A DNA stretch of 64,000 nt from a virus (taxonomy: Duplodnaviria > Heunggongvirae > Uroviricota > Caudoviricetes). The first letter of the stretch is position 1, and every line of letters begins with the position of its first letter. The translations under genes and the position numbers were made by a program. The stretch lies in the IMG/VR virus record IMGVR_UViG_2925891887_000001. One strand, 5' to 3'. The notes beneath the pieces were generated by a model that saw nothing but the letters and a program-made list of their open reading frames with translations, had not been told where the DNA came from and did no database searches. This document shows positions 14,925 to 29,847 of this stretch, in pieces.

Positions 14925-14967
14925 CGGCTGTTAGTGCATATGCATTGACCATCTCTGCGTAAGCAAT

Positions 14968-14994
14968 TTATGTAATTAGAAAACAACTTGTTTT
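14968..14994 (+). promoter_or_regulatory. promoter/operator cassette
   Basis: TGTAAT -10-like hexamer, then AGAAAACAACTTGTTTT (perfect 15-nt palindrome 14980-14994). Leader AAAGGAAAACACATG. Confidence 0.5.
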
Positions 14995-15017
14995 GACAAA
15001 TAATAAAAGGAAAACAC

Positions 15018-15443
15018 ATGTTAGGTTTCTTCAAAAAGAAAACTCGTAAAGCTGTTATCGAAGTCAAAAAAATGGAGAACCGTGATGCGGTTGAGGCCAC
15101 CGTGTGGGGCGCGTACATGATCTCCTATGCCGACGGCACATGTGACGCAAAAGAAATTGCCATTCTTGAGAAGACAATTGCAGCTCTGCCTGCGTTTTCT
15201 CCGTTTGCTGGTGAAATTGCCCAAATGAGCGCCAATATCCGTGCTCGTTACGAAGCGTCCCCTCGTTCTGCTAATGCACAGGCTATTCGTGAGCTGTCTG
15301 ATATTGCGGGTACTCCAGAGGCGGTCGATGTTCTGTGTCTGTGCCTTGATATTGCCGATCAGGACGGCATTGGTGAACAAGAAGAGCAGGCACTGAAAAA
15401 GATCGCCCAGGCGCTTCAGTTGTCACTGGATGCTTATCTCTAA
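15018..15443 (+). CDS. TerB-like (tellurite-resistance TerB fold) protein
   Basis: Two ADG-x-D/E-xxE repeats (YADGTCDAKEIAILEK and ADQDGIGEQEEQALKKIA), typical of the TerB family. Confidence 0.55.
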   Translation: MLGFFKKKTRKAVIEVKKMENRDAVEATVWGAYMISYADGTCDAKEIAILEKTIAALPAFSPFAGEIAQMSANIRARYEASPRSANAQAIRELSDIAGTPEAVDVLCLCLDIADQDGIGEQEEQALKKIAQALQLSLDAYL

Positions 15444-15601
15444 TGCTTGAGAGATTCCGGCTTGTGATCGTCATTGCTCTTCTGGTGATGGCGGTGTTGG
15501 TGGATTTTACGGGAAAGATGATGTCTGTCATTTCTGATGGCGTCCTCATTGGTCTGGCGATCTACTTCGCTTATCCGCTAGTCCGTAAAGCAACGTGTTA
15601 A
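15443..15601 (+). CDS. small membrane protein (52 aa), below the ORF-track cutoff
   Basis: TAATG overlap with the upstream stop. Translates to MLERFRLVIVIALLVMAVLVDF...GVLIGLAIYFAYPLV with two hydrophobic segments. A terminator follows directly. Confidence 0.45.
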   Translation: MLERFRLVIVIALLVMAVLVDFTGKMMSVISDGVLIGLAIYFAYPLVRKATC

Positions 15602-15604
15602 TGA

Positions 15605-15630
15605 CAAGGGCCAAATGGCCCTTGTGTTTC
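15605..15630 (+). terminator. intrinsic terminator
   Basis: CAAGGGCC/GGCCCTTG stem, AAAT loop, TGTTTC tail. Confidence 0.7.
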
Positions 15631-15690
15631 GTTGACCGAAATAGAGAGTTTGCACCTTTACGTTTAGCTTGCTCCCCTTTTATGCCACAT

Positions 15691-15722
15691 CACAATAAAG
15701 CCAATAAGAAAACAACTTGTTT
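15691..15722 (+). promoter_or_regulatory. promoter/operator cassette
   Basis: CACAATAAAGCCAATAAGAAAACAACTTGTTTA. Leader TAGGAAAAACACATG. Confidence 0.5.
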
Positions 15723-15740
15723 AAGCATTAGGAAAAACAC

Positions 15741-16307
15741 ATGTGCAAGAAATGCAAAGCGATAGCTGATGAACAAAACGCCTTATTCGAAGAAATGGAT
15801 GCTAATGAACTGGTCAAAATGTTAGCCATTCTTCGAGGAATAGAAGACGTTTCCATATTTGAGAGAGTGGTTACAGCACTTAATTTTGAGTCCACCTTTG
15901 AAGAGCCAACTCAGGTTGTAGCTTTAGCACATCATTTCGGTGTTCATTATCTTGCTGAAAAAGAGAGAGCTGATAAGTTGCAAGCGACTTTGGATATGGT
16001 GAGCGAGACTCCAGGACCTCATGACGGTAACAAAAGTGAGACGATTATTGCCAGCAAAGATCGTGAAATTGCCGGGCTTAAATCCTCTCTAACGATGTTG
16101 ATGTCTGCAATTAACCTTATGTCTTCTAAAGCAGGTTATAAAATGCCATCACTAAACAGCGACGATCCGATGGCCGTTCGCCAGCTTTTAGGTGCAATGG
16201 CCGACCAGCTCGAAGACACAAAGAGTCGCCTTGAAGACATGATGCGGGAGCTCACGCATCGCCATGACTTGAATAAGCAGCCGCACAAAACGCAATACGC
16301 ACTCTAA
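15741..16307 (+). CDS. hypothetical coiled-coil protein (188 aa)
   Basis: ORF downstream of a cassette, followed by a terminator. Confidence 0.55.
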   Translation: MCKKCKAIADEQNALFEEMDANELVKMLAILRGIEDVSIFERVVTALNFESTFEEPTQVVALAHHFGVHYLAEKERADKLQATLDMVSETPGPHDGNKSETIIASKDREIAGLKSSLTMLMSAINLMSSKAGYKMPSLNSDDPMAVRQLLGAMADQLEDTKSRLEDMMRELTHRHDLNKQPHKTQYAL

Positions 16308-16324
16308 TACAGCACCAGTCGACA

Positions 16325-16346
16325 GGGGGCGACAGCCCCCATTTTT
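16325..16346 (+). terminator. intrinsic terminator
   Basis: GGGGGC/GCCCCC stem, GACA loop, ATTTTT tail. Confidence 0.75.
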
Positions 16347-16401
16347 ACGCCTTAAATCTGCTGTAACGCCTATGAATGCAGCTTTTATGCCTTTTCAAGT
16401 T

Positions 16402-16436
16402 TGCGATAATTACACCAATCAGAAAACAAATTATTT
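16402..16436 (+). promoter_or_regulatory. promoter/operator cassette
   Basis: Extended -10 TGCGATAAT (16402-16410), then AGAAAACAAATTATTT (16421-16436). Confidence 0.55.
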
Positions 16437-16448
16437 AATGGTGTAATT

Positions 16449-18134
16449 ATGAATACAGCCCTTTCCATCATCGACGATGCCAGCTCAAACACGGCTATCG
16501 ACTATCGTCAGGAAATGAATGTCATCCACGAAATCGTGGCCGAGTGCGAGAAAGAGATCGCCTTCATGTATCAGGTACACGACTTCGTTTATGGCGACGA
16601 ACGCCACAACATGATTAATCGCCTGCTGAGACTAAACCATCGACCAGATGAAGATCGCTCGCGTTTAAATCGAGGTTGGTTGGATAAAGTCGATCTGGAA
16701 TGGGTGAAACAGAATATTTGGGCCGAGTACTGGAGGAAGGTCACGGACATGACTAACGTTTTGCTGATCATGCCAGCTTCCCGTCGAGATGAGTGGCGCG
16801 AGCAGTTTATAGAGGGCAAACAGGAAGTCATCAAAACTGACAGAACCGGCTACCAGATGAAGGTTAAAGAGTTCGTTGGTGTACCGGAGTTCAAAGCAGA
16901 AACGGTCATACCCACGATGCTTAATTTGCTGAATGACAGGCACAAATATCTCTCTGAGCGCGTGTATGGCTTGTTTAAGGCGCTGAGTCCTGCGCACAAG
17001 ACAAATAAGACAAACGGTTTCAGCGAGCGGCTGATAATCGCTGACTGCATTTCTGATTTCTGGCGGGACAGCGTTAGCGTGAACTATCGCAAAGAGGACT
17101 ACATCGACGATCTGCGTGTCTTGCTTCATTTCTTCGCGCACAAAGAATTTATTACCATCAATCGCACTGCTGAGGTGCTATCAGCTGCGTATCGGGCAAA
17201 CGACTGCCAGACCGGTGACTGGATGAACGTCGATGGAAATCTGATGCGCGTGAAGATGTTCAAGAACGGCAACGTTCACTTTGAAATACATCCTGACGTG
17301 GCCTGGAAGTTGAATGAGGTGCTGGCTTACAGTATGCCTGCTGCAATCCCCGCGCCATGTCGCACCGCGCCAAAAACACGGGCACCAAAGCAGTTCGGGT
17401 TAATCCAGAAGACGATCTCCGTGCCGGTTCGCACTGCGCTTCGTGACGGGCGATTGAGCAAAGACAAAGGCGTATGGTACTTCTCTGATTCAGCTCTCCA
17501 GAAGTCGCAGGTGGAAGAGCTTGAGCGCACACTGAGCTTCATTGGCGGCGTGCAGGAGAAAAAACACTGGCAGTTCCCGTATGAGATCGGCCATACGCTA
17601 AATACGATTGTGGCTACCGGATTAATACCGGATACAAAATCACACCAGTTCTACCCTACCCCACGCTTGATTGCTGAGTACGTTGCCAGAGCCACTGAAT
17701 TGAAGTCTGGTGAGAAGCTGCTGGAGCCTCAAGCCGGACGTGGGGATCTTCTGGCCTATATCAACGCCGATCTGGAAGATGTTACCTGCATAGAAATCGC
17801 ACCTCTCTTCGCTGATATCCTGCGCGGAAAAGGGTATACGAACACGATTTGCTGCGACTTCATAAAGTGGTCTGAGGACAACGTAGGTTATCAGTTCGAC
17901 AAAATCGTTATGAACCCGCCGTACTCGCTTGGTCGTCATAGAGAGCACACGCTGGCTGCGCTGGGGCATCTGAAAGTCGGCGGGCGTCTTGTAGCAGTAT
18001 TGCCGGGCACTGCGCCAATACTGGACTGGATGACGATGGATAATTACGTTTATGCCAGAGGGAAGTCGTTTACCAACGAGTTTGAAGACACAGGGATCAC
18101 AGTCAGCGTATACGTTTTCAAACGCGTTAAATGA
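16449..18134 (+). CDS. N6-adenine DNA methyltransferase with an N-terminal domain of about 400 aa of unknown function
   Basis: C-terminal SAM motif LLEPQAGRGDLL and catalytic IVMNPPYS. The N-terminal two thirds have no motif I recognise. Confidence 0.7.
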   Translation: MNTALSIIDDASSNTAIDYRQEMNVIHEIVAECEKEIAFMYQVHDFVYGDERHNMINRLLRLNHRPDEDRSRLNRGWLDKVDLEWVKQNIWAEYWRKVTDMTNVLLIMPASRRDEWREQFIEGKQEVIKTDRTGYQMKVKEFVGVPEFKAETVIPTMLNLLNDRHKYLSERVYGLFKALSPAHKTNKTNGFSERLIIADCISDFWRDSVSVNYRKEDYIDDLRVLLHFFAHKEFITINRTAEVLSAAYRANDCQTGDWMNVDGNLMRVKMFKNGNVHFEIHPDVAWKLNEVLAYSMPAAIPAPCRTAPKTRAPKQFGLIQKTISVPVRTALRDGRLSKDKGVWYFSDSALQKSQVEELERTLSFIGGVQEKKHWQFPYEIGHTLNTIVATGLIPDTKSHQFYPTPRLIAEYVARATELKSGEKLLEPQAGRGDLLAYINADLEDVTCIEIAPLFADILRGKGYTNTICCDFIKWSEDNVGYQFDKIVMNPPYSLGRHREHTLAALGHLKVGGRLVAVLPGTAPILDWMTMDNYVYARGKSFTNEFEDTGITVSVYVFKRVK

Positions 18135-18153
18135 TAGGTAAATACTTACTTAG
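18133..18153. repeat. GTAAGTA-type palindrome (GATAGGTAAATACTTACTTAG)
   Basis: Overlaps the stop codon of the methyltransferase gene. Confidence 0.65.
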
Positions 18154-18194
18154 TTTATGTAAGAATGTAGTAACTAAACGATAAGAGAAAACAC

Positions 18195-18899
18195 ATGAGC
18201 AACCTCCAGTTAGAGCATTTTAACGTCACAGGCCATTCCGATTTTCCTTTCAAGTTTACATTGAAAGGTTATGCAGAGGATGCGGTAGGCCAGATCATTA
18301 TTGATAAAGACATCGTTAAGTTTGAGGGGAATTTTGATGAATCCGCGAAAACATTCATAGACTTCGTTGCCAAACGTTGGAGCGAGCAATGGAAAAACCT
18401 GGAAAAGCGCGCCAATGAGTTTGATCGGTTCATGGATGCAATGGATACAGCAAAAGAGGCTCTTGATGCCGGGACTCCGTTAGATCTGGAGTCACTTTTC
18501 AACGGCGAAGTGGCCTCTGCGATGTTCGCCACCATGTTCGCGGGTGAGTTCGTCCGCAGCGGTGCCAAAAACTACCTTGAGCTGGATTACAACGTCCCTG
18601 CAATTGGCGATTTCGTCGTTACCATCCAACGCAAAGAAGGTAAGACGCCAGGTGAACGCGTCGCAGAGCTTGAGGCCGTTGTGGATCAGCGTAACGGAGA
18701 GTGTGACCGTTTGATCAACGAGCTTCATGCACTTCGGGAAGAAAGAATATGTGCGGGTAGCAATACACGTAATGCAGCGGATATCTACTTCCAGTTAGTT
18801 GAGGAATGCCAGATTCCACCAGGTGGCTCTCTTGTCGATTACGTCAGACATTTAATGGCGGAAGTTAACTCCAGCCATAAAGATGGTGAGGTGCGCTGA
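18195..18899 (+). CDS. hypothetical protein (234 aa)
   Basis: ORF with the AGAGAAAACACATG leader. Confidence 0.55.
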   Translation: MSNLQLEHFNVTGHSDFPFKFTLKGYAEDAVGQIIIDKDIVKFEGNFDESAKTFIDFVAKRWSEQWKNLEKRANEFDRFMDAMDTAKEALDAGTPLDLESLFNGEVASAMFATMFAGEFVRSGAKNYLELDYNVPAIGDFVVTIQRKEGKTPGERVAELEAVVDQRNGECDRLINELHALREERICAGSNTRNAADIYFQLVEECQIPPGGSLVDYVRHLMAEVNSSHKDGEVR

Positions 18900-19279
18900 T
18901 GTTTGGCATTGACGCACAGCGTATAGCCGCTTTTGCAAAAAGCCCTCTTGATAATCCCTTGTCTCGTAGTGAGCAAATGGAGCTGGCAAGGCTTTTTATT
19001 CACATTCAAAAACAGGCAGACGTTTTCAATAACATGCCTAATCAACCTATTCTGGATGGTCACATCCAGATGGTCATTAACAGTCATGAGAAAGGCTGGG
19101 CTGCAATCGTCCCCTGCACAATTACATACAGGTTGGCGAAAGAGGTTCAAGAGTTTCGAAAAGCCAGTGTCGAATCGGAGTCTACCAAAGCCGCAATAAA
19201 CACTCTTATTCGCATGGGGTTCACATGGACCGGTGGAGCCTACTGGCAAGCACCTCACCCCATTTTATCCGGCAATTAG
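18899..19279 (+). CDS. hypothetical protein (126 aa)
   Basis: ATG overlaps the upstream stop (TGATG). Confidence 0.5.
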   Translation: MFGIDAQRIAAFAKSPLDNPLSRSEQMELARLFIHIQKQADVFNNMPNQPILDGHIQMVINSHEKGWAAIVPCTITYRLAKEVQEFRKASVESESTKAAINTLIRMGFTWTGGAYWQAPHPILSGN

Positions 19280-19330
19280 ACGCTACAAATCCTTCGGCAT
19301 GAATAAATAAAGGCCATAAGTTGTGGCCTT

Positions 19331-19390
19331 AAATAAATTGTTTTCTACCTTTTCTTATTTGTGAAAATAACCACAACTAGAAAACAACGG
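19331..19390 (+). promoter_or_regulatory. promoter cassette with upstream and downstream operator elements
   Basis: AAATAAATTGTTTTCT (19331-19346), extended -10 TGTGAAAAT (19360-19368), TAGAAAACAACGG (19378-19390). Paralogous to 22953-23017 and 27992-28028. Confidence 0.55.
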
Positions 19391-19398
19391 AGTTAAGA

Positions 19399-19441
19399 AT
19401 GTCTAGTATTTCCGAAGCTCATATGTTCGCCGCTGGCGCTC
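19399..19441 (+). pseudogene. phage ORF truncated after 14 codons by an IS1 end
   Basis: ATG 19399 follows GGAG. MSSISEAHMFAAGAR runs straight into the IS1 terminal repeat at 19442. Confidence 0.6.
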
Positions 19442-19568
19442 GGTGATGCTGCCAACTTACTGATTTAGTGTATGATGGTGTTTTTGAGGTGCTCCAGTGG
19501 CTTCTGTTTCTATCAGCTGTCCCTCCTGTTCAGCTACTGACGGGGTGGTGCGTAACGGCAAAAGCACC
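19442..19568 (+). mobile_element. IS1 left-end fragment (127 bp: IRL plus first 24 codons of insA)
   Basis: Exact reverse complement of 55086-55212, the end of the complete IS1 in this window. Starts GGTGATGCTGCCAACTTACTGAT. Similarity stops after AAAGCACC. Confidence 0.95.
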
Positions 19569-19577
19569 ACCTTTTTA

Positions 19578-20678
19578 TCACACTGCGCGGAATGCGATTT
19601 CGCCAGGTATTACTTCACCTTGCCAATACATTTGGGCAGCAACGCGATCTGCGAGGTCACGATAAATAGCCGTAAATTCACTATCTGGACGACTAATAAC
19701 GGTTGGTGTTCCGTTATCCAGATCTTCACGAAGAGAGATATGAAGTGGCATTTGGCCTAACAACTGCGTGTTGTATTTCTCGGCCAGTTTCTGTGCGCCA
19801 CCGGTGCCAAAAATTGGCTCGTGATGACCGCAGTTACTGCAAATATGCACACTCATGTTTTCAACGATACCCAGTACCGGCACTTCGACTTTTTCGAACA
19901 TCACAATGCCTTTCTTCGCATCGATCAGCGCGATGTCTTGCGGCGTAGTTACCACAACCGCACCAGTTACAGGAATGTTCTGCGCCAGCGTCAATTGAAT
20001 ATCACCAGTGCCCGGTGGCATATCGAGAACGAGATAGTCCAGATCAGGCCACAGTGTTTCCTGCAACATCTGCATCAGCGCCTTGCTGGCCATCGGTCCA
20101 CGCCACACCATTGCATTGTCGTCGGTGACCAGATAACCAATAGAGTTGGTTGCCAGGCCATGAGACATGATAGGTGCCATGTGAGTACCGTCCGGTGAGG
20201 TTGGACGTTGGTTTTCCGCGCCCAGCATGGTTGGAATTGATGGACCATAGATATCGGCATCCAAAATACCAACTTTCGCACCTTCAGCAGCCAACGCCAG
20301 TGCCAGGTTTACCGCCGTGGAGGATTTACCCACGCCGCCCTTGCCCGAGCTGACGGCGATAATGTTCTTAACGCCATTAATGCCTGGTTGGTTTTTGACG
20401 CGCTTAAGCGTGGCAATGTTGTACGACAGCTTCCAGTCAATAGCCTTTGCGCCAGTGATACGGAGCAGATCACCACTACATTGCTCTTTCAGGTCTTCAA
20501 AAGGCTTATTCCACACGAAAGGCATGATTAGTTCGACATGCAGTGTGTCATCCATCAACGCAACATGGTGTAACGCTTTAAGCGTAGTCAGGTTGTGTTT
20601 CAGGGTTGGGTGCTGAAAATTAGCCAGCGTACCGGCTACCATTGCTCTCAGGGCATCCGGCGATTTGGACTCGCTCAT
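19578..20678 (-). CDS. mrp: Mrp/ApbC Fe-S cluster carrier ATPase (host chromosomal gene)
   Basis: 366 aa. Deviant Walker [10 protein letters not shown] and CSNCGH motif. Nearly collinear with enterobacterial Mrp/ApbC as I recall it. Divergent from metG, as on the chromosome. Confidence 0.9.
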
Positions 20679-20835
20679 CCCGTCTCCTTTATTTTAATTT
20701 GCGCAATTGTCGCCTTGTAGTGTACTCCAGCTACGACATTTAATCATTTATGAGAAATGCTGTTATCACATGGCAGACATAAGGCCATTTTGTTACTATC
20801 AAGCCCCTTTTCACTACAAAGAAGTAATGCCTACT

Positions 20836-22869
20836 ATGACCCAAGTCGCGAAGAAAATTCTGGTGACGTGCGCGCTGCCGTACGCTAACGGCTCAATCCA
20901 CCTCGGCCATATGCTGGAGCACATCCAGGCTGATGTCTGGGTTCGTTACCAGCGAATGCGCGGCCACGAGGTTAATTTCATCTGTGCCGACGATGCCCAC
21001 GGTACGCCGATCATGCTGAAAGCACAGCAGCTTGGTATCACACCGGAGCAGATGATTGGCGAAATGAGTCAGGAACACCAGACTGATTTCGCAGGCTTTA
21101 ACATCAGCTATGACAACTATCACTCGACGCACAGCGAAGAGAACCGTCAGTTGTCTGAGCTTATCTATACTCGCCTGAAAGAGAACGGTTTTATTAAAAA
21201 CCGTACTATCTCTCAGTTGTACGACCCGGAAAAAGGCATGTTCCTGCCGGATCGTTTTGTGAAAGGCACCTGCCCGAAATGTAAATCCCCGGATCAATAC
21301 GGCGATAACTGCGAAGTCTGCGGCGCGACCTACAGCCCGACTGAATTGATCGAGCCGAAATCGGTGGTTTCTGGTGCTACCCCGGTAATGCGTGATTCTG
21401 AACACTTCTTCTTTGATCTGCCCTCTTTCAGCGAAATGTTGCAGGCATGGACCCGCAGCGGTGCGTTGCAGGAGCAGGTGGCAAATAAAATGCAGGAGTG
21501 GTTTGAATCCGGCCTGCAACAGTGGGATATCTCCCGCGACGCGCCATACTTTGGTTTTGAAATTCCGAACGCGCCGGGCAAATATTTCTACGTCTGGCTG
21601 GACGCACCGATTGGCTACATGGGTTCTTTCAAGAATCTGTGCGACAAGCGCGGCGACAGCGTAAGCTTCGATGAATACTGGAAGAAAGACTCCACCGCCG
21701 AGCTGTACCACTTCATCGGTAAAGATATCGTTTACTTCCACAGCCTGTTCTGGCCTGCCATGCTGGAAGGCAGCAACTTCCGCAAGCCGACCAACCTGTT
21801 TGTTCATGGCTATGTGACGGTGAACGGCGCGAAGATGTCCAAGTCTCGCGGCACCTTTATTAAAGCCAGCACCTGGCTGAATCATTTTGACGCTGACAGC
21901 CTGCGTTACTACTACACTGCGAAACTCTCTTCGCGCATTGATGATATCGATCTCAACCTGGAGGATTTCGTTCAGCGCGTGAATGCCGATATCGTGAACA
22001 AAGTGGTTAACCTGGCGTCCCGTAACGCTGGCTTTATCAATAAGCGTTTTGACGGTGTGCTGGCAAGCGAGCTGGCTGACCCGCAGTTGTACAAAACCTT
22101 CACTGATGCCGCTGAAGTGATTGGTGAAGCGTGGGAAAGCCGCGAATTTGGTAAAGCTATCCGTGAAATCATGGCACTGGCTGACCTGGCTAACCGCTAT
22201 GTCGACGAGCAGGCTCCTTGGGTAGTCGCAAAACAGGAAGGTCGCGATGCTGACCTGCAGGCGATTTGCTCAATGGGCATCAACCTGTTCCGCGTGCTGA
22301 TGACTTACCTGAAACCGGTACTGCCGAAACTGACAGAACGTGCGGAAGCATTCCTGAATACGGAACTGACCTGGGATGGCATCCAGCAACCGCTGCTGGG
22401 CCATAAAGTGAATCCGTTCAAAGCACTGTATAACCGTATCGACATGAAACAGGTGGAAGCATTGGTGGAAGCGTCTAAAGAAGAAGTGAAAGCTACTGCC
22501 GCGCCAGTTACTGGCCCGCTGGCAGACGACCCGATTCAGGAAACCATCACCTTTGACGACTTTGCCAAAGTTGACCTGCGCGTGGCACTGATCGAAAACG
22601 CAGAGTTTGTTGAAGGTTCTGACAAACTGCTGCGCCTGACGCTGGATCTCGGCGGTGAAAAACGCAATGTCTTCTCAGGCATCCGTTCTGCTTATCCAGA
22701 CCCACAGGCACTGATTGGTCGTCACACCATTATGGTGGCTAACCTGGCTCCGCGTAAGATGCGCTTCGGCATCTCCGAAGGTATGGTGATGGCTGCTGGC
22801 CCCGGCGGGAAAGATATCTTCCTGTTAAGCCCGGATGCTGGTGCTAAACCTGGCCACCAGGTTAAGTAA
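20836..22869 (+). CDS. metG: methionyl-tRNA synthetase (host chromosomal gene)
   Basis: [25 protein letters not shown] (HLGH), [17 protein letters not shown] zinc knuckle, KMSKS, C-terminal tRNA-binding domain. The listed start at 20707 is an upstream in-frame extension. Confidence 0.95.
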
Positions 22870-22891
22870 TTAAGCAACCTCTGTTCGCAAT

Positions 22892-22916
22892 GCCCGGCAA
22901 CACGCTGGGCATTTTC
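22892..22916 (+). terminator. metG terminator
   Basis: GCCCGGC/GCTGGGC stem (one G-U pair), 5-nt loop, ATTTT tail. Confidence 0.6.
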
Positions 22917-22952
22917 ATATAGACACAATCCCTCCTGATTTACACAAGCCTT

Positions 22953-23017
22953 AAAACAATTTGTTTTCTACCTTTTGTTGATTGAGATAATAAGCCACAT
23001 AAGAAAACAAATTGTTT
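22953..23017 (+). promoter_or_regulatory. promoter cassette with two operator palindromes
   Basis: AAAACAATTTGTTTT (22953-22967, perfect), extended -10 TGAGATAAT (22983-22991), AAACAAATTGTTT (23005-23017). Confidence 0.6.
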
Positions 23018-23030
23018 CGGAGTGGTTGAA

Positions 23031-23330
23031 ATGTTGAACATTACCCAAGCCTACCAGGTGGCATTGATCAGTTCATCTCATACATCAGAGGAAGATGCTC
23101 GCCGATTCATGATCGCAAGCAATGAGCTGGATTGGGTTTCACAAATTGATGGCGGTTGTATTGTCCACGCCGGGTTACAGGATGATGTCTGGAAAGACGA
23201 CTTGCGTCGATATGGTATATCCGAAGGCGCGATTGCTAACATTCAGAAAGTACTTGATGTAGGCTTTGACTCTGTACATTTTGATTGTGGTGCGCCGATC
23301 GTTGAAGGGCTTGAGTGCTGGTGTTGGTAG
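23031..23330 (+). CDS. hypothetical protein (99 aa)
   Basis: ATG 23031 follows GGAGTGG. Confidence 0.5.
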   Translation: MLNITQAYQVALISSSHTSEEDARRFMIASNELDWVSQIDGGCIVHAGLQDDVWKDDLRRYGISEGAIANIQKVLDVGFDSVHFDCGAPIVEGLECWCW

Positions 23331-23461
23331 AGTGTATAAGCGGATCAATGAGTTACGGAAACAGTTAATAATGAGGAGCTTGTAATAAGCTGTATACCCT
23401 AGAAAAGCTAGACTAGGGAATAAAATGACGTGAAACTGGGCGAGACAGTAAATAATTCCGA

Positions 23462-24691
23462 ATGATAATTGAACAAATAACCCCTTGCTCGGAGCTTGGA
23501 ATGACTGATACCGCTTTTTCAAAATCGTTACAAAAAGAAGTCGATCCTGAGCAGTACTTGGCGCTAAAGAATTTAGATGACAGCTCGGTTCATGCTATTG
23601 CCCGTGACGATATCATCTGCCCCATTTGCAAAGTTGGAGGTGGTTCGTTCGTTAGAGCCACTAGGAATGGTGGCTATCACAAGAAGGCGCATTTCAGATT
23701 TACCGGTGAAGATGGTCAAGGCCATCATCCATCATGTGATTTCTATGGAGATAGACTAACATCTGAGGTGAAGCAGCACCTTGTCTCATTCACAAAAGAT
23801 CGAACAAAGTATTCGCAGGTAATACGAAAGCTGGTCTGTGCCGGCATACAGGAAGGGATATTTACTCAAGAAAAAATGTGGCAGATGAGGGAATGGTTCT
23901 TCAATAAGCGAAAGGATTCCACATTTGAAATATGGTTAGAAAGCGAGCATTTAGACTGGCTTTATTATATTAGTGGGTTACGTGATGCATATCTAGCATG
24001 GACAACTCCTGATATTCTACCTTTCGCGCCCATTCAGGTTACTGTGCCTGGTTTTTCTTGGAAGCGTGCGATTGACAAAGAGGTGCTAAGAGTTCACATC
24101 AAGACTCTCCAGCAATTGCGTGAAATTTCAGTCTCACATAGAGACATTGCTGTAATCTTAGAACACATAAACAATAATCGTGACCGCACAATTCTCGATC
24201 CATCGCATTTGGAGGACGAGATAAGTAAGACCTGTAAGCTTACTAGTTTTGTGATGGGCAATTACATTGAGTTTCAGACAAAAACGGTTAGCGACAGAGC
24301 ATACGGGGAAGCTAAGTTTCTGGCATTTGCAGCACTTTTGTTGTTCGTGTCAGATTGGGACCTCAACATTGCTATTGGTAAGTTTTCTAAGATTGCCAGA
24401 GTGAAGGAGGTTGATGACATGCTGGCTGGTAATTTCATTGGTCTTAATCCTTACTTCCGATACGACCTGGCTAATGCAGTGAAGAGATTGCAGGATAACT
24501 GGCCGATTGAATACCAAGAGTTGGAGCATTGGAATGTTGAGAAATCCATGCGTGACGCATATGAAAAGTGGCGTGCGACAGAGCCTGAATTCGCTCCACC
24601 CCTATTGCCAGACTTGTATATTGCCAAACATGAGAAAGAAGTCGCACAAGACGAGCAAGTCAGGCAGTGGATTAAGAACGGGGATGTTTGA
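23462..24691 (+). CDS. hypothetical protein with an N-terminal Cys/His zinc-ribbon-like motif (409 aa)
   Basis: CPICKVGGGSF...HKKAHFRFTGEDGQGHHPSCD. Lower GC than its surroundings. The start is uncertain, with an alternative ATG near 23501 after GGAG. Confidence 0.55.
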   Translation: MIIEQITPCSELGMTDTAFSKSLQKEVDPEQYLALKNLDDSSVHAIARDDIICPICKVGGGSFVRATRNGGYHKKAHFRFTGEDGQGHHPSCDFYGDRLTSEVKQHLVSFTKDRTKYSQVIRKLVCAGIQEGIFTQEKMWQMREWFFNKRKDSTFEIWLESEHLDWLYYISGLRDAYLAWTTPDILPFAPIQVTVPGFSWKRAIDKEVLRVHIKTLQQLREISVSHRDIAVILEHINNNRDRTILDPSHLEDEISKTCKLTSFVMGNYIEFQTKTVSDRAYGEAKFLAFAALLLFVSDWDLNIAIGKFSKIARVKEVDDMLAGNFIGLNPYFRYDLANAVKRLQDNWPIEYQELEHWNVEKSMRDAYEKWRATEPEFAPPLLPDLYIAKHEKEVAQDEQVRQWIKNGDV

Positions 24692-24820
24692 GTGTAATTA
24701 GCTTAATCAATCAGTTGATAATGGCGGTCACAATTTGATTCTTTTCTATAAGAATCCGTTGATCGCCACTACTCTTCTTCCATACCTGCAATCACACCTT
24801 TAAATATCAATAGGTTAACG

Positions 24821-24850
24821 TTGTTTATACCAATAAGAAAACAACTAAAT
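24821..24850 (+). promoter_or_regulatory. promoter cassette (half operator)
   Basis: TTGTTTATACCAATAAGAAAACAACTAAAT. The AAAACAACTAAATAACA part recurs at 25069-25085. Confidence 0.4.
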
Positions 24851-24898
24851 AACAGATCAACGAAACATCAACGCTTTCACCCGATTTGGTCTAAAAAA

Positions 24899-24927
24899 TT
24901 GACGTTTTCACACATCACTTCTTATAC
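24899..24927 (+). promoter_or_regulatory. sigma70-like promoter
   Basis: TTGACG, a 17-nt spacer, then TTATAC. Confidence 0.4.
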
Positions 24928-25673
24928 CCGTAATTCTACGCAGCAGATAGCGCTACAGCGTCCAAATTTCACCACAGACGACTCAACACACTACCAACAA
25001 AAACACACGCTCAAAATCGCTCCCGTTGCGTTACACAACCATATAAACAACTTATTTTCAGGTATAACAAAACAACTAAATAACACACATGCCATTACCC
25101 AAAACAACCAACCTCTTTATGGCAGGCTACCGAAAAGACCCACCTCTTCTCCCCAGGCTACCGGACAACCAACCTAACTTTCACAGGCAATCCGAAAACA
25201 TTCATACGCGCGATACCCACGACACGCCATTACCCAAACAGCGAAGAAACACCAGAATCACTGAAAACCCAACGAAGCCTGTTACCGCAAGGATTCTCTC
25301 AATCCCAAAAGACACGAAACAGAACAATCACGGGAAACGCCATTACCCAATACACGAATAACTACAAAAGCCTTTCACACACTCCAGACAAACAACTCAA
25401 ACACAATAACGAAAGGAATCGCCCACCTGCCATTACTCCATACACGGAGAAGAACAATCACCAAAACGACGAGAACACCCCATAGAAGAACCACCGCAAA
25501 ACGAACGAAACCACATACACCGACAGAGAGAACAACACACCCAATTCACCAACAGAAATAGTCGCCGTATAGAACGTTCTGGAAGGAGTGAGCATTAACG
25601 CCTATAGAGAGGTTGAGACAGATAAAACACAACATGTATAGCGAAGAAGCCAGGTATGTATAAGTGGGGAGGG

Positions 25674-25697
25674 AAGGAGGGGTGTCGCCTCCTTTTT
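25674..25697 (+). terminator. intrinsic terminator
   Basis: AAGGAGG/CCTCCTT stem, 7-nt loop, T5 run. Confidence 0.65.
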
Positions 25698-25760
25698 CGT
25701 ATTTATTCAACTCCTGATTTTATCCCCCGTAACACCCCTACGGTCAGCCTTCGGTCCATA

Positions 25761-25893
25761 CAGGGAAAAGGTTGCATCCCGCTACAGAAACGGCTGGGTT
25801 GCCTTCGGGGAACGGCTGGAGGTTTTCAGGGAAACGGTCGAGTTGCCTGTGTGGATTTCGGGAAAAGGCTCGATGCCGGTTCAGGAACGGTGG
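25761..25893 (+). repeat. direct-repeat (iteron-like) array 1, six copies of the (C)GGGAAA(A/C)GG(C/T)NG type
   Basis: Copies start at 25761, 25785, 25806, 25827, 25859 and 25882, with spacings of 24, 21, 21, 32 and 23 nt. Confidence 0.75.
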
Positions 25894-26204
25894 CGTACCG
25901 GTATAGCGAGAGGGAGAGTTGCGGCTACCCACCTGTAATGTGCGGGAAGAAGAGAGGCGCTCACGTAGGCGGACTTGCTTACCGCTGGATTCCCTCTGAA
26001 TGCCCAGCTACAGCGTAATTGTGCCAGACAGCCAGCGGGTCACAATCGATTTCAGTAGGTTTTTGGGGAGAGGATTACTCTGCCACCAGCCACTTTCGGC
26101 CACTAAATCAGAATAATGTAAAAAGTGCACTCGGTACTGAACCTGAAAACTCACTGCCAAAACCACATTCACCGGAATAAAATCCTTTTTCGCCTGTGCG
26201 TTAT

Positions 26205-26240
26205 TGCGATAATAACACCAACAAGTAAACAACATGTTTA
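26205..26240 (+). promoter_or_regulatory. promoter/operator cassette
   Basis: Extended -10 TGCGATAAT (26205-26213), then TAAACAACATGTTTA (26226-26240). Confidence 0.55.
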
Positions 26241-26271
26241 GACGTTATATAAACGAAGTGAGGATGAAGAG

Positions 26272-26490
26272 ATGATTAAGATGCCTGTGACGGTTGAGGT
26301 GTGGGGCGTGGATTCCCTGGCTGAGTGTCTGGATGCAGTGGGGCCGGAGTTGTACCGCAAGTTGTGGTCGTTCGTCCCGGCAGAAGGGGAACCGCCCAAG
26401 GGGAAGGATATCTGGCACCTGCTGAGTGAAGATGAAAAGCGGGAGCTGGTGGACGCGGTACACAGCGAGTTCCCGGGCGACGAAGATTAA
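26272..26490 (+). CDS. hypothetical protein (72 aa)
   Basis: ORF after GAGGATGAAGAG, followed by a terminator. Confidence 0.5.
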   Translation: MIKMPVTVEVWGVDSLAECLDAVGPELYRKLWSFVPAEGEPPKGKDIWHLLSEDEKRELVDAVHSEFPGDED

Positions 26491-26497
26491 GAGTGAG

Positions 26498-26518
26498 GCC
26501 ACCAGCACGGTGGCTTTT
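26498..26518 (+). terminator. intrinsic terminator
   Basis: GCCACC/GGTGGC stem, 5-nt loop, TTTT tail. Confidence 0.7.
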
Positions 26519-26580
26519 GTCGCTATTAACCTCCGGGCAGCGCAACACCGTAACGATATACTTTGTGGCCGTTTTCTTAC

Positions 26581-26617
26581 TGGTATTGTTTACGCAATTT
26601 AGAAAACAACATGTTTA
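26581..26617 (+). promoter_or_regulatory. promoter/operator cassette
   Basis: TGGTATTGT, then AGAAAACAACATGTTTA. The 57-bp unit 26561-26617 is duplicated at 27045-27101. Confidence 0.55.
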
Positions 26618-26628
26618 AGGATTGCTTT

Positions 26629-26958
26629 ATGTTTACAAATATCGACATCAACCAAATCAAGAAATTAACTCAAAAAGAGTTTGATCAGTTTTATGAGTTA
26701 GAAGGTTGGTCTTCCACTCTGATCAATTCAAGATGGGTGCTGGAGCTGATGACTCGTGATGACGCACCTGCTTTGATGATTTGCGACATGGGTGAAGATG
26801 CTGACTTTATGGATATGAGCGAATTTTGTGTGGACACATACAACCGCAGCCAGAAGTACTACTTCACATGCGATAGCGAAAATGACGTGATTTCTAAGGT
26901 CTATCTTCACCTCGTCCAGCATTGGGACGTTCAGGAGTTTCTTGAAGTATTCGAGTAA
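26629..26958 (+). CDS. hypothetical protein (109 aa)
   Basis: ATG 26629 follows AAGGA. Confidence 0.5.
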   Translation: MFTNIDINQIKKLTQKEFDQFYELEGWSSTLINSRWVLELMTRDDAPALMICDMGEDADFMDMSEFCVDTYNRSQKYYFTCDSENDVISKVYLHLVQHWDVQEFLEVFE

Positions 26959-27064
26959 CCCCAACCAAAGCCAGCATTGCTGGCTTAATTTCTCTATAGA
27001 CGCAGGGAAGAACCTGCATATCGCTCATGCGCCTGATCAATATGCTTTGTAGCCGTTTTCTTAC

Positions 27065-27101
27065 TGGTATTATTTACGCCATTGAGAAAACAAGTTGTTT
27101 A
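27065..27101 (+). promoter_or_regulatory. promoter/operator cassette
   Basis: TGGTATTAT, then GAGAAAACAAGTTGTTTA. Confidence 0.55.
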
Positions 27102-27111
27102 CGGAGTTGTA

Positions 27112-27423
27112 ATGAAAAAATCATTGGTTCTTGGTCTGGACAAAGACCAGAAGAGAAAAGAGAAGCCTGCGCTGGTTGCTCAATTAACTTTGCTGGACAT
27201 CGTTGCCAATGGGACCTCTATTCGTCTGTTCCGTGAAACAGCGGTGTCTTTCGATAAAAACACCTTTACTCGTTATGTAATGAATGTTCGTCGCCAGCGT
27301 GGAAAAGGCTGGGTGGCATTTCAAAGAATGTGGCCGGAACATCAGCTCGAACTGGCTTTGATGGAAGTTAACCGCGTGGCCCAGCAAGAGATTCAGAGAG
27401 CATCAGTGATGGCAATAGCCTGA
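27112..27423 (+). CDS. hypothetical basic protein (103 aa)
   Basis: ATG 27112 follows ACGGAG. Confidence 0.5.
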   Translation: MKKSLVLGLDKDQKRKEKPALVAQLTLLDIVANGTSIRLFRETAVSFDKNTFTRYVMNVRRQRGKGWVAFQRMWPEHQLELALMEVNRVAQQEIQRASVMAIA

Positions 27424-27457
27424 TAATGTGCAAGTGGCAATTAGTCGACAGTACGAC

Positions 27458-27485
27458 AGCCCCGCCATCCTTACGGGGCTTTTTT
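27458..27485 (+). terminator. intrinsic terminator
   Basis: AGCCCCG/CGGGGCT stem, 9-nt loop, T5 run. Confidence 0.8.
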
Positions 27486-27490
27486 GTATT

Positions 27491-27506
27491 GTAAGTACAT
27501 ACTTAC
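27491..27506. repeat. GTAAGTA-type palindrome (GTAAGTACATACTTAC, perfect arms)
   Basis: Read directly. Lies 44 nt upstream of ATG 27550. Confidence 0.85.
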
Positions 27507-27549
27507 GATCATAGAATAGAAAAATAACCAATACACTACGGAGAGTGAA

Positions 27550-27945
27550 ATGACCGTTAAACGCGAAAAACTGACAGTTGATGTTTACTATGCCTCTGAA
27601 ACCGCCGAAGGTAAGAATGTGGCAAAAATCACCGTTGTTACGTACAACACCGAAACTGGTGCCGAAGTACAGGCCAGTACGATCGTGCGTAAAGGTGATG
27701 CCTCCGGCGGCGAGTACGCGACTCAATACCAGTCCATTCTCGATGCAACTGACCCGCTGCTGCTGAAAATCGAGAACTACTTCCGCCAGGTTGATGAAGA
27801 GGTGTTTGAAACCATGATGAATATGGTTAACACCGTATTCGCCTCCAGCCTGAATACCAACACTACCTGGATTGGTCAGTACGGCCTGCGCATTACCTCT
27901 GGCATTCCTGCCGACACCTTAATCCCTGAAAGCGTATTCGCTTAA
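27550..27945 (+). CDS. hypothetical protein (131 aa)
   Basis: ORF after ACGGAGAG. Confidence 0.55.
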   Translation: MTVKREKLTVDVYYASETAEGKNVAKITVVTYNTETGAEVQASTIVRKGDASGGEYATQYQSILDATDPLLLKIENYFRQVDEEVFETMMNMVNTVFASSLNTNTTWIGQYGLRITSGIPADTLIPESVFA

Positions 27946-27953
27946 TCCTCTTT

Positions 27954-27979
27954 AAATGGCGCGTAAACCGCGCCATTTT
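27954..27979 (+). terminator. intrinsic terminator
   Basis: AAATGGCGCG/CGCGCCATTT stem, 5-nt loop. Confidence 0.65.
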
Positions 27980-27991
27980 ATTAAGCCCGAT

Positions 27992-28028
27992 AACAATTTG
28001 TTTTCTGCCTTATCTGATTTGTGAAAAT
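27992..28028 (+). promoter_or_regulatory. promoter cassette with upstream operator
   Basis: AACAATTTGTTTT (27992-28004), then TGTGAAAAT (28020-28028). Confidence 0.5.
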
Positions 28029-28062
28029 GATTTCACTGAAGCAAGTTAATAAGGAAACCATC

Positions 28063-28437
28063 ATGGGACTTGATATCTATATCGAGACACAGCCTAAAAA
28101 CGATCTGAATAACGAGGCATCCAGAAAGCAGGTTGCTTACTTCCGTAAGTTCAATGCGCTCGTTGGGTGGATGGAGCGCAACGTAGGTGAAGTCGAAAAT
28201 TGTGAGCTTTTAGAATTAACGATGAATGACATTTGTTTTCTGAAGGCTCATTTGATGCACATAAACGAAAGTAATTGCGAAGAGTACTTGCCTACCCGGG
28301 AAGGTTTTTTCTTCGGCAGTCAGGAGTACGATGAAGGTTACTGGCATGATGTGGGGCAGTTGAAAGAGCTTGTGGAAGATCTGATTAAGAACCACGACTT
28401 TCACAATAACAGACTGACCTTCTGCGCCTGGTGGTAA
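28063..28437 (+). CDS. hypothetical protein (124 aa)
   Basis: ATG 28063 follows AAGGAAACC. Confidence 0.5.
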   Translation: MGLDIYIETQPKNDLNNEASRKQVAYFRKFNALVGWMERNVGEVENCELLELTMNDICFLKAHLMHINESNCEEYLPTREGFFFGSQEYDEGYWHDVGQLKELVEDLIKNHDFHNNRLTFCAWW

Positions 28438-28439
28438 AT

Positions 28440-28583
28440 ATGGGCGATTTCAAGAAACGCCTGAAGGAAAGAGCCGAGATGGTCAGAAAGCAAAACGCCT
28501 CTTCTGTCATCAGATACGCAAGGCAGTTTAGTCGCAACAACAAATCAGTTGAGGAAAAGATCCTTAGCGTAATCGTGCGATAA
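28440..28583 (+). CDS. small basic protein (47 aa), below the ORF-track cutoff
   Basis: ATG lies 3 nt after the upstream stop. Translates to MGDFKKRLKERAEMVRKQNASSVIRYARQFSRNNKSVEEKILSVIVR. A hairpin follows at 28589-28612. Confidence 0.35.
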   Translation: MGDFKKRLKERAEMVRKQNASSVIRYARQFSRNNKSVEEKILSVIVR

Positions 28584-28734
28584 TTATTAAGGCCATCAGC
28601 ATTGGTGGCCTTAAATGACCATCTTGTTTCCCGCAGGCTAAAAACACCAACCTCTTACCTCCAGGCAACCGACAAACCCACCTGTTCCCGTCCGGCTACC
28701 GCAACTTTCCACTTTGACGCCTTATTCGTACAAC

Positions 28735-28766
28735 GATAATTAACACCAACAAGAAAACAATTTGTT
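28735..28766 (+). promoter_or_regulatory. promoter/operator cassette
   Basis: GATAAT (28735-28740), with TTGACG at 28714-28719. Then AAAACAATTTGTT (28754-28766). Confidence 0.55.
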
Positions 28767-28787
28767 ATTTACGATAAGGAATTAATC

Positions 28788-29270
28788 ATGAATTTTATCG
28801 CTACTGTAAACGCACCCGCACATGGCAATATCGCTGTAACGTTCTCTGACATTGAAAAACGAGTACTTGGTGCATGGCGCGACAATGAGACGGTAGAACT
28901 GTCAGCACAAGAAAAATGCATTATTGCACGCGACATCATTGGCAATCGTCGTTACTCGCGGGTATTTGAGAAAGCGTATGTGGTAAATTCTGGATTCGGA
29001 ACGTTCGTCTTTCCGGTGCGCTCCGGGCGATTCTGCCAGTCCAAGCTGATTGAGTTCGCTACGCAGATTTCTTTCTGGATTAAAACTCAATCGTCGTTCA
29101 AATTTTCCGACGATGAAGCAGTATCGCAGGGGATGCGGATCGCCAACAATGCAATTAAATGCAAAAACATTACGTATACCGCTGGCGTTGATACATGGAA
29201 ACTGTTTTGCGCTAACTTTATGCTGAATGTATACGCAAGCAACCGCATCCACATCCTTGATGGCGTGTAA
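28788..29270 (+). CDS. hypothetical protein (160 aa)
   Basis: ORF after TAAGGAAT. Confidence 0.55.
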   Translation: MNFIATVNAPAHGNIAVTFSDIEKRVLGAWRDNETVELSAQEKCIIARDIIGNRRYSRVFEKAYVVNSGFGTFVFPVRSGRFCQSKLIEFATQISFWIKTQSSFKFSDDEAVSQGMRIANNAIKCKNITYTAGVDTWKLFCANFMLNVYASNRIHILDGV

Positions 29271-29276
29271 CTGAGA

Positions 29277-29300
29277 AGAGGGCCAGAAACGGCCCTTTCT
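29277..29300 (+). terminator. intrinsic terminator
   Basis: AGAGGGCC/GGCCCTTT stem. The loop itself contains an iteron-like CAGAAACGG. Confidence 0.55.
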
Positions 29301-29796: not shown

Positions 29797-29826
29797 CAAT
29801 AAAAAACGCGCCATCAATGGCGCGTT
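29797..29826 (-). terminator. intrinsic terminator of the minus-strand island operon
   Basis: AACGCGCCAT/ATGGCGCGTT 10-bp stem, followed on the minus strand by T6. Confidence 0.75.
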
Positions 29827-29847
29827 ATTGTGGAAGTATTGGAAACG

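Follow-up and report, generated by a model that had tools for sequence, protein, structure and literature searches.

Between positions 14,968 and 29,300 of the DNA analysed here (the window: 64,000 nucleotides (nt) of the tailed-phage record IMGVR_UViG_2925891887_000001), the plus strand carries a chain of short gene units headed by copies of one repeated signal. In the present work we examine this signal, its distribution and its probable role. The chain is flanked by an RNase H gene on one side and a cluster of minus-strand genes on the other; nucleotide-metabolism genes are found upstream of it, and the terminase, head and tail genes start at 39,250. More than 100 Escherichia coli plasmids of ~110 kb, including pSTEC409_1, AnCo1 and pECOH89, match the region (14.5 kb) over at least 80% of its length with 96-99% identity; the records with this coverage number at least 107. 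The phage records Cyrano, CMS-2020a and PhiR41_1 also match it, and Salmonella phage SSU5 and Klebsiella relatives do so in part. Judging from these matches, the window is a phage-plasmid of E. coli of the SSU5/pECOH89/Cyrano type. The element is accordingly an SSU5-like temperate siphovirus and plasmid, not a T4-like lytic myovirus. E. coli, Klebsiella and Salmonella commonly harbour phage-plasmids of the SSU5 type, which are carriers of resistance genes; to our knowledge, their control is essentially undescribed.

A sequence-only reading of the window had divided the region into twelve units of the form promoter cassette, open reading frame(s) (ORFs) and terminating stem-loop, and all twelve are found in the places it assigned to them (Table 1). 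This layout holds for most units; unit 10 departs from it, having a different palindrome (class B, see below) instead of the common signal (class A). Insulation by terminating hairpins had also been proposed, and it is supported by a GC-rich hairpin at 11 of the 13 unit ends. Here we required a folding free energy (dG) of at most -12 kcal/mol within 75 nt of the unit end, a threshold reached by 11% of random 80-nt coding windows taken as background. No such hairpin is present within 75 nt after 23330 or after 24691, in agreement with the claim that the unit ending at 23330 lacks a terminator. On the plus strand, several of these hairpins (19310, 28587) lack a T-run.

Table 1. Features of the region and related sites elsewhere in the window. 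Cassettes, operators, promoter elements and terminators are predicted; scores in bits refer to the class-A signal and dG values (kcal/mol) to the hairpin or terminator.
Feature	Position	Strand	Score or remark
Class-A site upstream of nrdB	4759-4776	+	23.1 bits
Cassette 1: TTGACC -35-like, weak -10, operator AGAAAACAACTTGTTTTG at 14978-14995	14946-14995	+	26.2 bits
Unit 1: TerB/TciA-like 15018-15443 (141 aa), DUF3927/TciB-like 15443-15601 (52 aa)	15018-15601	+
Unit 1 hairpin: 9-bp stem, weak T tail	15604-15625	+	dG -20.8, extended stem
Cassette 2: -10 CACAAT, operator 15707-15724	15667-15724	+	27.8 bits
Unit 2: single gene, 188 aa, phrog_5508	15741-16307	+
Unit 2 intrinsic terminator: GGGGGCgacaGCCCCC then ATTTTT	16325-16340	+	dG -15.0
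Cassette 3: TGcGATAAT extended -10, operator 16421-16438	16381-16438	+	25.9 bits
Unit 3 payload: three genes	16449-19279	+
Unit 3 gene 1: DUF4942 N6-adenine methyltransferase, 561 aa	16449-18134	+
Class-B palindrome between unit 3 genes 1 and 2	18135-18152
Unit 3 gene 2: Ead/Ea22-like, 234 aa	18195-18899	+
Unit 3 gene 3: Eaa-like, 126 aa	18899-19279	+
Unit 3 hairpin: AAGGCCAtaagttgTGGCCTT	19310-19330		dG -12.1; T-run on minus strand only
Cassette 4, dual: 19329-19346 (-), TGtGAAAAT, 19379-19396	19329-19396	+	spacing 50 nt
HD_4 phosphohydrolase gene remnant, 14 codons (SSU5_099 type)	19400-19441	+	truncated by IS1
IS1 left-end fragment, partial insA	19438-19571	+
Captured host segment: apbC 19578-20678 (-), metG 20836-22869 (+)	19578-22913		terminator 22889-22913
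Cassette 5, dual: 22952-22969 (-), TGaGATAAT, 23002-23019 (+)	22952-23019	+
Unit 5: DUF5983, 99 aa	23031-23330	+	no hairpin after
409-aa ORF, phrog_12525, low G+C	23462-24691	+	no class-A cassette
Cassette 6: operator variant AGAAAACAACTAAATAAC, left half only	24814-24853	+	poor -10
CA-rich non-coding module	24854-25700	+	terminator 25671-25697
G-rich repeats GGGAA[AC][AC]GG after CA-rich module	25760-25900	+
Cassette 7: TGcGATAAT, operator 26224-26241	26176-26241	+	breakpoint hot spot
Unit 7: 26272-26490 (72 aa) and terminator	26272-26524	+	dG -16.6
Cassette 8: operator 26601-26618	26556-26621	+	88% identity with cassette 9 (66 nt); breakpoint hot spot
Unit 8: 26629-26958 (109 aa), hairpin 26968-26986	26629-26986	+
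Cassette 9: TGgTATTAT, operator 27085-27102	27040-27105	+
Unit 9: 27112-27423 (103 aa) and terminator	27112-27489	+	dG -16.2; in 59/64 relatives
Unit 10 promoter-like TTGTAA-17-TAGAAT, class-B palindrome GTAAGTACATACTTAC in spacer	27489-27518	+
Unit 10: 27550-27945 (131 aa), terminator 27954-27978	27550-27978	+	dG -15.2
Cassette 11: inverted upstream operator 27989-28006 (-), TGtGAAAAT	27989-28033	+	downstream operator absent in this genome
Unit 11: 28063-28437 (124 aa), 28440-28583 (47 aa), hairpin 28587-28614	28063-28614	+
Cassette 12: GATAAT, operator 28752-28769	28712-28769	+
Unit 12: 28788-29270 (160 aa), terminator 29273-29301	28788-29301	+	dG -17.7; in 64/64 relatives
Late (terminase) operon leader: two class-A sites 25 bp apart, then T-run hairpin	39169-39249	+
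Class-B sites in window	2320, 6898, 7036, 11871, 14088, 18135, 27492, 35620, 41136, 42643, 44563, 48138, 55426, 62349

The cassettes have a common layout, in which a -10-like element is followed, after 10-11 nt, by an 18-nt imperfect palindrome, AGAAAACAAnTTGTTTAA (the class-A signal). The sequence AGAAAACAA occurs 16 times in the window, compared to 1.28 expected copies and a maximum of 5 in 100 shuffles, and AAACAAnTTGTTT, with up to two mismatches, occurs 19 times (6.2 expected). A repeat finder also returned a 30-nt family with nine copies in the window. The duplication of one promoter unit pointed out earlier is real, with 89% identity between 26561-26615 and 27045-27099; over the longer span of 66 nt (26556-26621 and 27040-27105) the identity is 88%.

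The anatomy was derived from 32 copies aligned on the motif, taken from the window, the rest of the AnCo1 genome and SSU5. The left half of AGAAAACAAnTTGTTTAA is nearly invariant and the right half looser. All 32 copies have a T at 11 nt upstream of the motif, corresponding to position 6 of the -10 hexamer; this hexamer matches TATAAT at four or more of the six positions in 21 copies and is preceded by TGn in 14. In the accessory region it is typically GATAAT or TATTAT, and the -35 zone is weak, being TTGnnn-like only. While the distance between the motif and the -10 element is fixed, that to the ATG ranges from 21 to 51 nt, and the motif is thus tied to the promoter rather than to the ribosome-binding site. 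Cassettes 4, 5 and 11, like many of those in relatives, have a dual form, in which the -35 zone is overlapped by an additional, inverted copy of the motif; its spacing from the downstream copy is invariably 50 nt. This constancy argues for recognition on DNA. Unit 11 has the inverted upstream copy only. In the downstream position AGAAAACAA is always on the coding strand, and copies share similarity in their flanks, such as CCTTTTC and ACACCAAC, which points to common descent by duplication. From this anatomy the cassettes would be expected to act as promoters. A promoter on the minus strand of the dual cassettes, giving a small RNA that ends at the upstream hairpin, was also considered and dropped, its -10 not being conserved. 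Rfam gave no match at the gathering threshold over the whole window, and none at E <= 1 in 24700-26300.

It is important to note that the signal is not confined to the accessory units. With a weight matrix built from the window copies, ~20 strong class-A sites were found in the whole AnCo1 genome, 12 of them within the 15% of the genome that forms the accessory region, and 22 sites were found in SSU5, compared to 0.33 in shuffles. In these two genomes class-A sites also precede nrdB, the genes for a parA-like ATPase and a dnaB-like helicase, cobT-like and HNH genes, and the late operon. The signal is just as well represented in a set of 64 IMG/VR relatives, in which the identity of the anchor protein to that of the window ranges from 67 to 100%, and the motif core is kept in SSU5 and in relatives at 67-82% protein identity, where the flanks have diverged. 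The units had been described as individually regulated. This does not hold, as all of them but one carry the same 18-nt signal, which also stands ahead of core genes and the late operon; a signal common to both indicates co-regulation, i.e. one regulon. In an exact-pattern scan of IMG/VR the matches were almost all to SSU5-like contigs or single and at chance level. The multi-site stretches without DNA similarity proved to be variants of the CA-rich module described below. We found no description of the motif in SSU5-like elements in the searchable literature, outside which one relevant 2026 preprint on phage-plasmid promoters lies.

The two class-A sites of the late-operon leader are followed by a hairpin, GAGCGCatggaCGCGCTC, which has a T-run and lies just before the terminase small-subunit-like gene; this arrangement is conserved in SSU5 (53-130). 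By its sequence, the stretch 39169-39249 looks like a regulated leader terminator.

The content of the units differs considerably between relatives. Over the 10 kb preceding the anchor gene in the 64 relatives, the first ORFs after class-A sites fall into 22 families, many of which are limited to between one third and one half of the loci. Among the relatives with a full 10-kb flank there are at least 27 different unit orders, and one and the same slot can hold alternative genes (families F5 or F7; F6 or F8; F4, F11, F15, F16 or nothing). The presence/absence polymorphism expected of an accessory region is hence confirmed. Breakpoints, defined as the ends of high-identity alignments to the window, accumulate at the operators of cassettes 7 (26220-26259, 26 events) and 8 (26600-26639, 23 events), at the two ends of the 409-amino-acid (409-aa) ORF (18 and 23 events) and, most strongly, at the hairpin 28587-28614 (28580-28619, 33 events). 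Two cases can be read directly. Cyrano, which has no unit 7, carries a hybrid composed of the upstream half of cassette 7 and the downstream half of cassette 8, with the junction inside the operator. pSTEC409 has a whole extra cassette-ORF-hairpin unit between two copies of a hairpin that is single in the window. The phage has its own recombination set, consisting of RecA-like, UvsY-like and exonuclease proteins.

One of the slots had been suggested to contain host DNA, and apbC-metG indeed lies behind an IS1 remnant between cassettes 4 and 5. The IS1 end at this slot measures 134 nt, and metG is accompanied by its own terminator. The truncated ORF noticed behind the cassette at 19331 is what remains, 14 codons from the start, of an HD_4 phosphohydrolase gene. 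SSU5 and other relatives have this gene intact; here it is cut by the left end of IS1. The apbC-metG segment is ~90-91% identical to the chromosomal copy of E. coli (5,422 E. coli genomes), which indicates that it is not a recent capture from E. coli and stems from another enterobacterium or is old. Plasmid p22AR0322A has an exact match to the host-DNA stretch, in the same gene order. Relatives hold an extra 3.3-3.9 kb in slot 4, comprising an Ea22-type operon and an S24 peptidase gene, and the arrangement of the window looks, by this comparison, like an IS1-associated deletion.

The sequence-only reading had taken the units for an arsenal of morons or anti-defence genes. Morons, as known from lambdoid phages, are extra genes with their own promoter and terminator that vary in presence and are expressed from the repressed prophage. 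The payloads that could be recognised are the TerB/TciA-like and TciB-like proteins, the DUF4942 methyltransferase, the Ead/Ea22-like and Eaa-like proteins and DUF5983; slot 4 in relatives holds the HD_4 hydrolase. The remaining payloads belong to PHROG families of unknown function, and five payload proteins are without a sequence relative in the PDB. PHROGs places the TciA/TciB-like genes in the category "moron, auxiliary metabolic gene and host takeover". The methyltransferase domain is the sole PADLOC match among the payloads, and sequence searches of Pfam, PHROGs, PADLOC and the PDB gave no defence or anti-defence match for any other payload. As an orphan N6-adenine methyltransferase, a classic anti-restriction device, it is the only payload that fits an anti-defence role.

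Expression could be assessed from lysogen RNA sequencing of Cyrano, a relative that is ~96-97% identical and not this plasmid itself (PMC9928086, S1 Table). In this lysogen the prophage median is 9.8 normalised reads, and the published cut-off for morons is 49. The homologues of the class-A units have 5-17 normalised reads, i.e. background, and the term moron can thus not be upheld for most of the units; with such levels they behave as repressed genes of the lytic programme. Cyrano is induced 39-fold by ciprofloxacin. Only four genes in the region exceed the cut-off, namely the S24 peptidase gene CYRAN_98 (148 reads), which lies in the stretch missing from slot 4 of the window, apbC (92), CYRAN_102 (57) and CYRAN_109 (58); the Cyrano metG is near background. 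CYRAN_109 is the homologue of the 47-aa gene 28440-28583, and the gene just upstream of it has 5.7 reads; the 3' end of unit 11 may therefore contain an internal promoter or give rise to a small RNA. Ten-fold differences between adjacent genes fit insulation. CYRAN_102, a coiled-coil gene expressed in the lysogen, replaces the 409-aa ORF in Cyrano, and we consider this ORF the best moron candidate of the region. It has a G+C content of 42-43% and a promoter-like GAGACA-16-GATAAT at 23442.

On the basis of these results, the reading that we regard as probable is that of an early, repressor-controlled hyperplastic region, whose units stand under one shared operator, the copies of which double as crossover points. 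The region would consist of about a dozen short transcription units, each headed by a cassette and closed by a GC-rich hairpin, and the 18-nt palindrome would be the operator of one phage-encoded DNA-binding repressor, covering about +3 to +20 of the transcript. In the strong form of the cassette, a second, inverted operator 50 nt upstream would overlap the -35 zone. During plasmid life the repressor would shut all these promoters, which are presumed to use the host RNA polymerase, and upon induction or infection they would be released jointly. The units would form one regulon with the promoters of replication, nucleotide metabolism and the late leader, with the hairpins separating the outputs of the units. 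Copies of cassettes and hairpins (30-66 nt, with identities of up to 89%) would in addition offer homology for recombination, by which units can be added, deleted and swapped; this would explain the gene-content polymorphism. The points that support repression are the position of the motif across the start point, the fixed -10 geometry, the bracketing copy, the silence of the units in the Cyrano lysogen and the good extended -10 elements, which should work unaided. Promoter activity, the transcription start, repression at the level of DNA and the recombination mechanism are steps that we infer from these features.

A number of observations weigh against this reading. No cognate repressor was found among the candidates examined, which were the FljA-like, 92-aa, XRE and ParB-like proteins. 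The -10 element is poor at the expected place in several core-gene copies and in cassette 6, and the region shows no enrichment in a generic sigma-70 scan (13 promoters found, 23.7 expected); such a scan misses the cassettes because their -35 is only TTGnnn-like. The left half-site is far better conserved than the right one, which is unusual for a simple dimer operator, and the conserved copies at 19379 and 24836 are without a right half. Silence in the lysogen would equally fit promoters that depend on an activator. Nor does repression appear uniform, as expression of the parA operon, which follows a class-A site, reaches 5-9 times background in the lysogen.

Concerning the candidates, the gene 31327-31851 (minus strand) encodes a full-length FljA homologue (PF03614, E 3e-80). 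It is present in every SSU5-like phage of the collection, as is every core gene; the protein has no PDB relative, and the gene is only ~2 times above background in the Cyrano lysogen. The 92-aa protein encoded at 33729-34007 (minus strand) is a candidate regulator whose Cyrano homologue is expressed in the lysogen; its single-sequence AlphaFold model is poor (pLDDT 65). A class-A-like site at the start codon of this gene is not conserved in SSU5 and was dismissed as coding sequence. The XRE repressor (CYRAN_45), located beside the integrase and outside the window, has a control region with a class-B-like GGTAAGTGCTTACC and no class-A site, and a related GGTAAGTGCTTACC is found in the XRE repressor control region of AnCo1. 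The ParB-like genes, candidates for KorB-like global regulators, are silent in the lysogen.

Several other explanations have to be weighed. If the units were morons or anti-defence genes with private promoters and terminators, they would be expressed independently of the phage programme, also in the prophage-plasmid. They do have their own promoter-like sequences and hairpins, their presence varies among relatives, PHROGs labels the TciA/TciB-like genes accordingly, the orphan methyltransferase is a classic device of this kind, and CYRAN_102, CYRAN_109, apbC and the S24 peptidase gene are expressed in the lysogen. The explanation is nevertheless improbable in our judgement, as the signal is common to ~20 promoters, core ones included, the homologous units remain at background (5-17 reads against the cut-off of 49), and PADLOC, Pfam and the PDB gave no defence or anti-defence match for a payload beyond the methyltransferase domain. 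Another option considered was that the 18-mer works as RNA, that is, as an element of the 5' leader bound by a phage RNA-binding protein such as the FljA-like one, controlling translation, stability or termination. This would agree with the location of the motif between the predicted start and the Shine-Dalgarno sequence, with the strict coding-strand orientation of downstream AGAAAACAA, with the better-conserved left half and the two copies without a right half, and with the presence of the FljA-like gene throughout the SSU5-like phages of the collection; FljA itself, the phase-1 flagellin repressor, acts after transcription on the fliC mRNA (PMC2652032). However, it is the distance to the -10 element that is fixed and not that to the ATG (21-51 nt), the inverted copies 50 nt upstream fall outside the transcript, and only a marginal 4-bp RNA hairpin is possible. 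The fliC leader of E. coli K-12 has no class-A-like site (best score 6 bits), and the FljA-like gene is, as mentioned, only ~2 times above background. Control at the RNA level is hence unlikely.

The 18-mer could also be a positive element, either the site of an early or middle activator of the phage or a mark recognised by a modified RNA polymerase, in which case the silence of the lysogen would result from an absent activator. Such a role would account equally well for that silence, and also for the weak -35 zones, the poor -10 elements of some copies and the unenriched promoter scan; the class-B palindrome shows moreover that the phage has more than one promoter class. On the other hand, a site downstream of the -10 element and across the start is usual for repressors and rare for activators, the good TGn-extended -10 elements of the accessory copies should work unaided, and the dual form brackets the promoter in the manner of a repression loop, which together make an activator site improbable. 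Finally, the copies might have no regulatory role at all and represent scars, or short selfish repeats propagated through recombination. The similarity of the flanks (CCTTTTC and ACACCAAC) does show descent by duplication, but the position is constant relative to the genes and the -10 element, the orientation strictly follows the coding strand, and the core is kept in SSU5 and in the 67-82%-identity relatives despite diverged flanks. We consider this last scenario highly improbable.

The palindrome of unit 10 (27492) had been noted as not belonging to the cassette. It is indeed a copy of the class-B palindrome, roughly ATAGGTAAGT-N0-4-ACTTACCTAT, which is found family-wide and occurs also inside unit 3. 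The pattern TARGTAnnTACYTA gives 18 matches, compared to 0.16 expected, and a half-site search with a looser pattern yields 27 matches in AnCo1 and 30 in SSU5, some of them overlapping at a single locus, compared to 5.4 and 3.2 in shuffles. The class-B sites that were read in context sit just upstream of gene starts, early as well as late.

We turn next to unit 6, which is headed by an operator variant, AGAAAACAAnTAAATAAC, and differs from the others in its payload. The stretch 24814-26200 is a family-conserved non-coding module of 1.4-1.6 kb, whose CA-rich part, with 70-74% C+A, is the most skewed of the window. It contains no conserved ORF: the PGAP annotation is empty over 1.58 kb, and the spurious ORFs differ between relatives. 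The module and its compositional skew are present in 55 of the genomes and loci checked. It contains a conserved, sigma-70-like TTGACG-17-TTATAC at ~24901-24930, class-A-like sites at 25042 and 25067, the repeat GCCATTACCC four to five times (four times in the window) and a 30-31-nt repeat three times. Tandem Repeats Finder returned nothing on the CA-rich stretch, because the repeats are too diverged. The predicted RNA, with ~31% C and 12% G, is weakly structured (-0.16 kcal/mol per nt, z = -0.89). The module is possibly the source of a long unstructured RNA that binds Rho or Hfq, or a lytic origin. G-rich repeats of the GGGAAACGG type follow the CA-rich stretch, and short copies of both repeat types are found around the universal 160-aa gene, at 28640-28705 and 29359-29395, with CCACCT..CAGGCTACCG twice upstream of the gene and GGGGAACGG/GGGAAACGG downstream.

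A speculative extension, which we offer tentatively and regard as rather unlikely in its entirety, is that the class-A cassette is a portable module that would enrol any incoming gene in the repressor-controlled early regulon and would be passed on as a cassette-ORF-hairpin unit. One such cassette would drive a family-conserved, untranslated, unstructured, C-rich and G-poor RNA of ~0.8 kb, acting in trans or in cis, possibly as a decoy for Rho or Hfq or as a transcript that activates a lytic origin beside the repeat arrays.

Beyond the chain, a gene-free stretch of 0.6 kb (29300-29880) separates it from the minus-strand cluster; it is dense in hairpins on both strands, corresponding to convergent terminators. 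An 82-aa ORF on the minus strand (30129-30377) has an 87%-identical hairpin repeat at its 5' end, with the next gene on the other side. The copies of this repeat, 29851-29881 and 30348-30378, lie such that the second is ~500 nt away, past the neighbouring gene, and a 213-bp stretch near 29851-30378 is missing in Cyrano and many relatives. The hairpin-bounded unit logic may operate likewise in this opposite-strand cluster.

A comparison with known systems is instructive. The PeSLs (promoter-early stem-loops) of T4-type phages are repeated intergenic cassettes of early promoter and stem-loop in hyperplastic regions (Arbiol et al. 2010, PMC2839356; Comeau et al. 2014, PMC4122927). The elements described here resemble them as small repeated intergenic elements with a predicted early promoter of host type and a putative stem-loop terminator, concentrated in variable regions ahead of short ORFs of unknown function, with a few copies beside plastic core genes, and with the indel and replacement junctions between relatives falling in the cassettes (here at operators 7 and 8 and the hairpin 28587-28614). 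They differ in that the phage is a temperate, plasmid-living siphovirus and not a lytic myovirus, in that the -35 zone is weak whereas PeSL promoters match the consensus, and in that the hairpin is separate, 10-100 nt upstream, and not interleaved with the -35 and -10 elements. The 18-nt palindrome downstream of the -10 element is moreover absent in PeSLs; its presence points to a specific controlling regulator and to silent units during lysogeny.

The C1 repressor of the phage-plasmid P1 acts on many dispersed operators over separate early operons. Both phage-plasmids have scattered lytic and accessory operons, each with a promoter of its own and, overlapping it, a copy of one operator; the operator occurs in a single and in a double form, and the cargo includes TciA/TciB-like genes. 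Of such a regulon we see here ~20 operator copies at a fixed distance from the -10 element and units that, the parA operon excepted, are silent in the lysogen. The sequence, however, is unrelated (no match to ATTGCTCTAATAAATTT with up to three mismatches), the operator is palindromic and not asymmetric as for C1, and the units are far shorter and each closed by a hairpin. In the CUP elements of IncN plasmids, a repeated site of the ArdK repressor precedes several small genes of accessory or establishment function, namely ardB, ardK and repA (Delver and Belogurov 1997, as cited in PMC6289460). Genes captured behind a copy there also come under the control of one repressor, the setting being the leading region of a conjugative plasmid and not a phage, with another sequence and another protein.

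With morons the units share their own promoter-like signal, the hairpin and their optional presence; they differ in that most are silent in the Cyrano lysogen and share the control signal of the phage itself. The region is closest to the PeSL-rich hyperplastic regions of T4-type phages in its working and evolution, and to the P1 C1 regulon and CUP/ArdK in its regulatory logic. It is a member of none of the PeSL, C1 and CUP systems: it belongs to another type of phage, has an unrelated sequence and adds a palindromic operator downstream of the -10 element.

These results mean that architecture alone is insufficient for labelling such genes morons. The 18-nt signal, present ~20 times per genome, offers a direct route to the master regulator and the early transcription programme of these phage-plasmids. 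The breakpoints in cassettes and hairpins, in turn, suggest a concrete mechanism by which cargo would be gained, lost and exchanged, bringing the logic of PeSLs to a temperate, plasmid-borne phage.

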